NCBI GenBank assembly: GCA_944391745.1
Contig: CALXUS010000003.1
Span: 27,732 to 91,731, forward strand
DNA length: 64,000 nt
Direction of reading: 5' to 3'
Origin: an uncultured Clostridia bacterium
GTDB lineage: Bacteria; Bacillota; Clostridia; TANB77; CAG-508
Positions 40,013-40,742 of this stretch are shown piece after piece; within the stretch, counting starts at the first letter, position 1, and every line of letters begins with the position of its first letter. Under the pieces are notes generated by a model that was given only the letters and a program-made list of their open reading frames with translations, made no database searches and was not told the origin of the DNA. The position numbers and the translations under genes are program-made.

Positions 40013-40042
40013 TTGACATAATTAATAAAAATAGTATATAAT
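40013..40042 (+). promoter_or_regulatory. sigma-A-type promoter TTGACA-18-TATAAT for toxI-toxN
   Basis: TTGACA 40013-40018, TATAAT 40037-40042. Confidence 0.55.
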
Positions 40043-40101
40043 GAATATACTAAAACAGTAATCATCTGATTACTTAAAAAGTTCTTATATAAAAGAACTA
40101 C

Positions 40102-40179
40102 TTCAAATTAGGTAAGGTTCAAACCTTTAAATGAACTAATTTCAAATTAGGTAATGCTTAAGCCTTATAAATAAGCAGT
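40102..40179 (+). ncRNA. toxI: ToxI-like antitoxin RNA: two tandem ~39-nt repeats
   Basis: Unit 1 (40102-40140) and unit 2 (40141-40179) share TTCAAATTAGGTAA at the 5' end and ~28/39 positions overall. They lie between a promoter and a hairpin directly upstream of a ToxN-family ORF. Confidence 0.65.
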
Positions 40180-40191
40180 TATAAATAGGGG

Positions 40192-40225
40192 GGTACATTT
40201 TAAAAGTGTACCTCTCTATAATTTT
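40192..40225 (+). terminator. hairpin/attenuating terminator between the toxI repeats and toxN
   Basis: GGTACA-TTTTAAAAG-TGTACC, then a T-rich tract. A terminator at this position is typical of type III TA loci. Confidence 0.5.
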
Positions 40226-40244
40226 GGTATTTGGAGAATTAAAT

Positions 40245-40742
40245 TTGAAAGAACTATTATTTTATATTGTAAAAAAAGAATATGTTGAATATTTAAGCAA
40301 ATATGAAGAACATGTAAGTTATAATAAAGAAAATGTAGGACATAGTAGGCCTTATTTAGGAATAGTTTTAGAAATAGAAAACTATGATTATTTTGTGCCA
40401 TTGTATTCGTACAAAGAACATTATAAAAAATATAAAAATAATCCAAGTTTTTTCTTTGTATATGACAGAAAAAATAATCCCTTAGCAATTATTAAATTCT
40501 CAGCAATGATACCTGTTCCAAAAACTATTGAAGTAACTTATCTATTAAATTATGAAAAACAAGATGATAAATATAAAAATTTAGTATCTGCAGAGTATAG
40601 ATATATTAATTCCCATAAGAAAGAAATATATCTAAGAGCAAATAAAATGTATATTGCAGTTACAAAACATAAAAATAACTTTTTAAAAACAATTGCTTGT
40701 GATTTTAAATTGTTAGAAGAAAAGTCTTTAGATTTTAAGTAA
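40245..40742 (+). CDS. toxN: ToxN/AbiQ-family type III toxin endoribonuclease
   Basis: From recalled ToxN/AbiQ sequences: FY.I...Y.EYL, GIVLEI, Y..PL.S.K, MIP and C.F..LEEK all occur in order. The TTG 40245 start after GGAG (40233) is preferred to the track's GTG 40206, which lies in the hairpin. Confidence 0.8.
   Translation: MKELLFYIVKKEYVEYLSKYEEHVSYNKENVGHSRPYLGIVLEIENYDYFVPLYSYKEHYKKYKNNPSFFFVYDRKNNPLAIIKFSAMIPVPKTIEVTYLLNYEKQDDKYKNLVSAEYRYINSHKKEIYLRANKMYIAVTKHKNNFLKTIACDFKLLEEKSLDFK

Follow-up and report, generated by a model that had tools for sequence, protein, structure and literature searches.

The closest described relatives of the locus presented here are the type III toxin-antitoxin systems of the toxIN family. 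According to Blower et al. 2012, whose membership criteria were used, a toxIN locus holds a ToxN-family toxin, a repeat array upstream of it, a terminator between the two and a promoter, which is preferably, not strictly, placed ahead of the array (PMC3401426). The arrays consist of 1.9–5.6 copies (mean 2.8) of units of 31–62 nucleotides (nt; mean 38.1), and the mean toxin length is 168 amino acids (aa) (PMC3401426, Table 2). The template of the ToxI pseudoknot is stem 1a, a 2–4-nt loop, stem 2a, a 1–2-nt loop, stem 1b, a longer loop and stem 2b (PMC3401426). The window analysed here, a stretch of 64,000 nt from a metagenome-assembled genome (MAG) of an uncultured gut Clostridia bacterium, carries a locus at 40013–40742 in which all four of these parts were found. 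This locus, encoded on the chromosome, very probably functions as a type III toxin-antitoxin cassette of the toxIN (ToxN/AbiQ) family. It is a complete and conserved ToxIN/AbiQ copy, an ordinary addition to the known family rather than a novel type of system.

Comparison with described systems

The best solved sequence relative of the window toxin was that of the ToxIN system of B. thuringiensis plasmid pAW63 (4ATO; E=1.2e-20), which also gave the best fold agreement with a template modelling (TM) score of 0.83. Both systems have a Gram-positive host and Arg at the position of K33 (HSRPY motif), and in both the array is short (2.9 units of 34 nt in pAW63) and is followed by a terminator and then by the toxin (PMC5086642). 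In contrast, the protein identity is ~30%, the unit is 39 nt long in the window compared with 34 nt, and the two units of the window are non-identical (72%). The pAW63 system is plasmid-borne, whereas the window locus is chromosomal. ToxN_Bt cuts A↓AAAA (the arrow marks the cut); the junction expected in the window, AAAU, is similar to the AA↓AU of P. atrosepticum (PMC7781912).

The best Foldseek E-value, 2.2e-11 (TM 0.78), was obtained with AbiQ of the AbiQ/antiQ system of L. lactis pSRQ900 (4GLK), and the PADLOC AbiQ model matched the window toxin with E=5.9e-40. The active-site loop PL[L/Y]SYK and a residue other than Thr at the T52 position are found in both proteins. The antiQ array comprises 2.8 repeats of 35 nt, and antitoxicity requires no fewer than 1.8 of them (PMC5086642). 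However, the proteins are ~27% identical, the antiQ repeats are near-identical, and the cut of AbiQ, A↓AAA, lies within its repeat (PMC7781912). Phage resistance has been proven for AbiQ, whereas for the window locus it is a prediction.

The paradigm layout of promoter, repeats, terminator and toxN is that of the P. atrosepticum (pECA1039; 2XD0/2XDD) and E. coli (7D8O) ToxIN systems. Their GIVLEI block is identical to that of the window, and their AA↓AU and GAAAU motifs agree with the conserved junction AAAU (PMC7781912, PMC8860590). A ToxI array of a Pectobacterium plasmid (L064), AAAUCC-AGGU-GAU-UCGC-U-ACCU-UAAGU-GCGG, has the same element order and the same stem-1 letters, AGGU:ACCU, as the first unit of the window. 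On the other hand, the protein identity is 24–36%, the window toxin has Tyr at T52 and Arg at K33, and at least 5.5 identical 36-nt repeats stand against two diverged 39-nt units and a degenerate one. The additional 5' hairpin of the window is outside the described paradigm.

CptIN (Eubacterium rectale, 4RMO) and TenpIN resemble the window locus in being type III systems, in occurring in gut Firmicutes, in their number of repeats, about two, and in gene layout. However, CptN reached a TM score of 0.59 and 16% identity with the window toxin, and the 39-nt unit is shorter than those of cptIN (40–48 nt) and equals the shortest of tenpIN (39–57 nt) (PMC3401426). Since the CptN match was far weaker and only the ToxN Pfam family matched, the toxin was assigned to toxIN; the locus belongs to neither cptIN nor tenpIN. 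Only two features go beyond the textbook picture, namely that the units diverge according to their position and that the 5' hairpin is conserved, and the locus leaves the present view of type III systems unchanged. Its main value is a correction of annotation: an unannotated small RNA gene and its toxin in the genome of an uncultured gut Clostridia bacterium.

Organization of the cassette

The sequence-only reading had proposed a toxIN/abiQ-like locus made up of a promoter, hairpins, two ~39-nt units, a terminator hairpin, a GGAG and a TTG-initiated open reading frame (ORF) of 165 aa. Each element was located where it had been placed, and the identity was upheld by family profile, fold, array, terminator and promoter. 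The features determined are the following:

40013–40042, + strand: promoter, TTGACA (40013–40018), 18-nt spacer, TATAAT (40037–40042); 12/12 match to the sigma-70 consensus
40057–40074, + strand: 5'-proximal hairpin AGTAATC-ATCT-GATTACT; from folding and pairing over 23 loci
40080–40099, + strand: degenerate unit 0, stem-2 hairpin AGTTCTT/AAGAACT kept and pseudoknot stem-1 halves lost; from comparison with relatives
40102–40140, + strand: ToxI-like antitoxin unit 1, predicted processing frame 40107–40145; stem 1a AGGU 40110–40113, stem 2a GGUUCA 40116–40121, stem 1b ACCU 40123–40126, stem 2b UGAACU 40132–40137; from direct repeat and conservation
40141–40179, + strand: ToxI-like antitoxin unit 2, predicted processing frame 40146–40184; stem 1a AGGU 40149–40152, stem 2a UGCUUA 40155–40160, stem 1b GCCU 40162–40165, stem 2b UAAGCA 40172–40177; from direct repeat
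40185–40229, + strand: intrinsic-terminator-like hairpin (40185–40219) with a short U-tract; no second terminator-like site was found in the region
40233–40236, + strand: Shine-Dalgarno GGAG, 8 nt ahead of the TTG start; read from the sequence
40245–40742, + strand: toxN, predicted 165-aa ToxN/AbiQ-family endoribonuclease toxin, TTG start, TAA stop; from family and fold matches

For the comparisons, 24 related loci of uncultured gut Clostridia MAGs were used, the toxins of which are 72–93% identical to that of the window and all of which have the leader in common; conservation of the leader was seen over 22 loci of other species. The pairing statistics were determined from an alignment of 23 leaders with 44 proposed pairs, which belong to the terminator, the 5' hairpin and both stems of the units (stem 2 in units 0, 1 and 2, and stem 1 in each unit). 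The promoter was the sole perfect site within 39700–41000, and both of its hexamers are kept in all the relatives with sequence reaching that far.

The hairpins at 40057–40074 and 40080–40099 fold jointly with -11.7 kcal/mol (z = -4.8), and none of 200 shuffles was as good. The helix of the 5' hairpin was 98.6% paired over the 23 loci, with two of its six pairs changed on both sides; L021, for example, carries GTAACT/AGTTAC. The same hairpin follows the promoter also in subfamilies with 37–52% protein identity. It would serve as a 5' cap structure that stabilizes the precursor RNA. The terminator-like hairpin at 40185–40219 (-20.3 kcal/mol, z = -6.7), which is followed by AATTTTGGTATTT, was 100% paired over the 23 loci with compensatory changes, and its role would be that of a leaky attenuator separating the antitoxin from the toxin.

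At the Shine-Dalgarno position the relatives have GAGG or GGAG, and the TTG start of the window toxN aligned to their ATG. A longer, GTG-initiated ORF of 178 aa was rejected as the toxin, as its start lies inside the terminator stem and is unconserved. The ribosome-binding region just 5' of the toxN start reads GAAATGAGG in many relatives (L004, L005, L006, L007, L014–L016, L018, L019, L024). A single mismatch separates it from the unit-junction motif GAAATTAGG; in the window this sequence of the ribosome-binding region is absent. Where it is present, ToxN might be able to cleave the mRNA that encodes it at the ribosome-binding site.

ToxN toxin

The ToxN/AbiQ profile match anticipated by the sequence-only reading was obtained with Pfam PF13958 (ToxN_toxin), E=1.4e-40 and 139.5 bits compared with a cutoff of 25, covering model positions 3–156 of 159. 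The blocks named there as typical of the family are present as FYIVKKEYVEYL, GIVLEI, YFVPLYSYK, MIPVP and CDFKLLEEK, and they align with the ToxN and AbiQ blocks. Apart from 4ATO, the sequence matches in the PDB (phmmer) were 4GLK (1e-15), 2XD0 (2e-13) and 7D8O (3e-13). The AlphaFold model, built with 33 homologues, had a predicted local distance difference test (pLDDT) value of 90.2 and a predicted TM score (pTM) of 0.88. The Foldseek top four for this model were 4GLK, 4ATO, 7D8O and 2XD0, with TM scores of 0.78–0.83 and a probability of 1.00.

The catalytic residues of the P. atrosepticum and E. coli proteins, K33, T52, S53 and K55, are known (PMC8860590); they align to R35, Y54, S55 and K57 of the window toxin. 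These four residues and the entire PLYSYK motif are invariant in the 33 homologues at 68–93% identity. Arg at the K33 position is found in E. coli clusters 4 and 5, which are known to be active (PMC8860590).

In four of the related loci, L022–L025, toxN is broken by a frameshift or stop, while the window gene is intact. All four still have their promoter and 5' hairpin together with one or two ToxI units, which suggests that they are toxin-dead cassettes retaining the antitoxin RNA.

Putative antitoxin units

The repeat search gave two direct repeats of 39 nt, at 40102–40140 and 40141–40179, which are 72% identical with the initial 14 nt exact. The 11-mer AAATTAGGTAA occurs at two places only in the window, both within the repeats, compared with 0.29 expected, and the longer unit pattern is restricted to the array within the 1.65-Mb genome. 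Tandem Repeats Finder did not report the array even at a minimum score of 30, because the units have diverged. It follows that surveys of type III systems based on repeats undercount arrays of diverged units, which are invisible to this program.

Both units can be laid out as a 5' tail, stem 1a (AGGU), 2 nt, stem 2a (6 nt), 1 nt, stem 1b (RCCU; R = A or G), 5–6 nt, stem 2b and a 3' tail, and their loop lengths fit the ToxI pseudoknot template (PMC3401426). Over the proposed pairs of the leader alignment, 98.1% of the cells pair compared with 35–53% with slid partners. Seven pairs were changed on both sides compared with 1.3 in shuffles, and seven was attained in none of the 500 shuffles. Stem 2 is backed by covariation within and between the units: it was 98% paired in unit 1 and 100% in unit 2, the latter with two pairs changed on both sides, and three of the six stem-2 pairs differ on both sides between the two units with the pairing kept.

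Units 1 and 2 have a mean identity of 94% between the loci. The corresponding values for toxN are 90% at codon positions 1 and 2, 74% at synonymous third positions and 54.5% at four-fold sites, and the spacer 3' of the terminator is 67% identical. Since the RNA units are above synonymous-site conservation, strong purifying selection on the RNA is indicated, and the comparison shows purifying selection acting on both RNA and protein. Conservation of this kind points to an active cassette.

The earlier description of only two repeats holds in so far as two full units were found. It does not mark the locus as unusual, as the family range is 1.9–5.6 copies and a degenerate third unit is present besides. 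In most relatives unit 0 is a full pseudoknot unit, UAGG..GUUCUU..CCUA..AAGAAC; both UAGG and CCUA are gone in the window and in L002. The stem-2 helix of unit 0 was nevertheless 97% paired in the 23-locus alignment. Unit 1 is kept at the same position in 18 of 22 related loci. It is absent from L019 and L021, the toxins of which are intact and which have kept units 0 and 2. Two functional units seem to be the working minimum, in agreement with the AbiQ need for at least 1.8 repeats and with the copy range of the family. The natural variants, with units 0+1+2, 1+2 or 0+2 and with toxin-dead loci retaining the RNA, are suitable for asking how many and which ToxI units ToxN needs.

From one species to another, a given unit type keeps its place in the array. 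Units 0, 1 and 2 differ mutually in stem 2 by compensatory changes, their positions are held across species with 20–30% toxin divergence, and the conserved 5' hairpin, which sister subfamilies have too, caps the array. It might be thought from this that the antitoxin is a fixed hetero-array rather than a set of interchangeable repeats, an idea which we regard as unlikely. If it were true, the units could have separate roles, for example one as a tight inhibitor and another as a labile sensor, or they could build a defined heteromeric ToxN:ToxI ring. Lineages would then run on differing two-unit subsets, 1+2 in the window and 0+2 in L019 and L021.

Evidence weighed against the assignment

Several observations weigh against a functional toxIN cassette. 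The U-tract of the terminator is short, and zero NCBIfam models matched the toxin. The equivalent of the catalytic T52 is Tyr (Y54); AbiQ is active with Leu at this position, and Tyr there need therefore not be disqualifying. The Rfam search of 39500–41200 at E<=10 gave two chance-level matches and no ToxI family. Because ToxI sequences vary widely between loci (PMC3401426), the absent Rfam match has no bearing on toxIN membership. Nested folding of the isolated units was no better than that of shuffles (z of -0.45 and +0.16). Short AU-rich pseudoknots are expected to fold poorly in nested-structure prediction, which is blind to pseudoknots and thus uninformative for the units.

Stem 1 is near-invariant in the close clade, and the covariation there says little for this reason. 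Its support comes from units of sister subfamilies, segmented by hand and checked by script, and so biased towards the pseudoknot model. The stem-1 variants in unit 0 of the relatives and in the sister subfamilies were UAGG:CCUA, AGAG:CUUU, UCGG:CCGA, UGG:CCA, GGUA:UACC, AAGG:CCUU and UUGG:CCAA. The explicit segmentation was used instead of the MAFFT unit alignments across subfamilies (A2, A5), in which stem 1a was misregistered. Finally, a further AAAU is found within the long loop of each unit, so that the cut site and the unit frame are not fixable from the sequence by itself.

The Tyr aligned to T52 bears on the possibility that the cassette is an intact-looking relic, silent or inactive, with a toxin that no longer cleaves RNA and repeats that are drifting. 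The degeneration of unit 0 in the lineage of the window, the decay of a second toxN copy in the same island and the presence of pseudogenes among the related loci (4/24) would all fit such a state. However, the invariance of Y54 and PLYSYK across the 33 homologues indicates that the change is ancestral and selected, and the RNA units are better conserved than the non-synonymous positions of the toxin gene. As the promoter, terminator, ribosome-binding site and ORF are intact as well, a relic is very improbable.

The four consecutive hairpins with the terminator as the last one, together with the missing Rfam ToxI match, could also belong to a structured leader that acts in cis only, setting toxN expression as an attenuator while the toxin is neutralized by another factor. 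This appears extremely improbable. The units fit the ToxI pseudoknot template and the junction and stem-1 motif of Pectobacterium ToxI, and ToxI units are retained in the pseudogenized loci. An adjacent candidate gene for a protein antitoxin was not found, and a mere attenuator needs no repeated units with A-rich junctions at exact 39-nt spacing.

Proposed processing and mechanism

The sites of the characterized toxins are rich in A: the P. atrosepticum toxin cuts AA↓AU, that of E. coli GAAAU and that of B. thuringiensis A↓AAAA, and AbiQ cuts A↓AAA (PMC7781912, PMC8860590). An AAAU beside each repeat had been pointed out in the sequence-only reading; it was found before both units, and a third AAAU follows 39 nt on, before the terminator. 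The AAAU stands immediately 5' of UAGG in each unit, and a sister subfamily has ACAU at the corresponding junction.

In the mechanism proposed, the strong constitutive promoter would give a leader RNA of ~180 nt with the protective 5' hairpin, the degenerate unit and the two non-identical 39-nt ToxI-like units. The majority of transcripts would end at the terminator hairpin, and a minority would read through to give the 165-aa ToxN endoribonuclease; with most transcripts stopped by the terminator, the antitoxin RNA would be in excess. By analogy with the solved ToxIN complexes, ToxN would cleave the precursor at the A-rich junctions, and AA↓AU cuts are predicted at 40106/40107, 40145/40146 and 40184/40185 with an exact 39-nt spacing. 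A freed unit would form an H-type pseudoknot with stem 1 AGGU:RCCU and the 6-bp helix of stem 2. Its single-stranded tails would fill the active sites of neighbouring ToxN molecules, resulting in a closed, inactive ribonucleoprotein ring. Upon transcription shut-off or faster RNA turnover, for example during phage infection, the antitoxin would not be replenished, and free ToxN would cut A-rich RNAs and arrest the cell (abortive infection). The processing, the exact cut sites, the neutralization, the stoichiometry, the trigger and the anti-phage role are given here as we infer them.

Genomic context

The gene order around the cassette is thrS (31666–33639), three paralogous orphan genes of ~900–980 aa, and a truncated ThrRS-like gene (43938–45149). 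The toxIN cassette sits between orphan copies 2 and 3. The further features of the region are:

33685–33807, + strand: patchy remnant of a decayed second toxN, fused with a duplicate of the promoter block found 3' of the intact toxN
33896–36869: orphan paralogue 1
36894–39912: orphan paralogue 2
40856–43807: orphan paralogue 3

The orphan genes were delimited by ORF, family and paralogue comparisons, and zero matches to them were obtained in Pfam, PADLOC or NCBIfam. Copies 2 and 3 are 68% identical, and copies 1 and 2 are broken, each split into two frames. The C-terminal region of the paralogues contains short repeats of the VRVVLAD type. The flanking 926- and 983-aa paralogues were considered as partners of the system and rejected, as they have no Pfam or PADLOC match and as other species have the cassette but not these paralogues.

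The embedding of the cassette in an island, which had been suggested earlier, was confirmed by the congeners, which have empty sites at the thrS / ThrRS-like junction. The gap between the two genes is ~160 nt in G075 and ~45 nt in G037, with no block between, and congener G126 has a YhgA-like gene of a transposase family (Transposase_31, E=1.2e-12) at the thrS junction. As thrS adjoins the ThrRS-like gene in congeners, the 10.3-kb block bearing toxIN is an insertion, and the junction is a variable insertion spot in the genus. It was examined in loci L072, L073 and L074 and in the window at 33640–43937.

In the closest relative, L002, thrS is followed by an intact toxIN and one orphan gene. This toxIN, directly 3' of thrS, occupies the exact place of the remnant in the window, which lies just after the thrS terminator and ahead of orphan paralogue 1. 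Three fragments of the remnant were matched: 33685–33698 to 40357–40370 at 14/14, 33768–33807 to toxN 40644–40682 at 38/40, and 33807–33846 to 40757–40796 at 36/40. Here the toxI array has been lost along with most of the toxin in a joint deletion. A promoter-like TTGACT-17-TATTAT (10/12) is present at 40760–40788, directly 3' of toxN and before orphan paralogue 3, and the block is duplicated at 33807–33846 before paralogue 1.

The 403-aa ThrRS-like protein (43938–45149) is without the N-terminal TGS and editing domains, and its TIGR00418 (thrS) score of 289.9 bits is below the cutoff of 383.65. It is followed by a 727-aa orphan ORF, and the pair is kept beside thrS in congeners.

Distribution and role

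ToxN-family genes were detected in 81 of 201 sampled genomes of the bacterial family, with up to 8 matches per genome; ToxN cassettes are very common in this family and often multi-copy. The subfamily of the window or nearer relatives (E<=1e-20) were present in 82 of 401 genomes. The cassettes of other species are flanked by housekeeping genes and stand by themselves, without mobile-element genes. Among phage and plasmid records only distant homologues with at most 36% identity were found. The viral contigs held neither an exact match of the unit pattern nor a close relative of ToxN, and they thus gave no sign of a copy carried by a phage or of a pseudo-antitoxin of phage origin.

The surroundings could also be explained by the same molecular system having a different role, namely addiction of the thrS-proximal island or stress-induced growth arrest instead of abortive infection of phages. 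The cassette lies within the 10.3-kb insertion, which is without counterpart in congeners, and in the closest relative it directly adjoins the same orphan gene family. Adjacent phage or known defence genes were not found, and the viral contigs yielded no close relatives. Against this, the cassettes standing alone between housekeeping genes have no island to stabilize, and the characterized members, P. atrosepticum ToxIN and AbiQ, are abortive-infection systems (PMC5086642). The frequency and copy number of ToxN are furthermore typical of defence genes. An addiction or stress role is therefore possible but rather unlikely, and abortive infection remains the preferred reading of the role.

The sister ToxN subfamilies (37–54% identity; L075–L080, L083–L094, L051, L055, L052–L054) share the promoter, GAATATACTA proximal to the transcription start site, the 5' hairpin and the junction A(A/C)AUUAGG. 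In one sister subfamily the units are ~62 nt long, and their long loop contains an additional hairpin. A single ToxI-like unit precedes the terminator in some ToxN loci that belong to other subfamilies (L032, L041, G395:C11, G279:C7, G224:C11, G300:C2, G300:C11). In some relatives with 44–54% identity, from the same list of entries, the ToxN domain lies within open frames of 376–393 aa, which may represent domain fusions.

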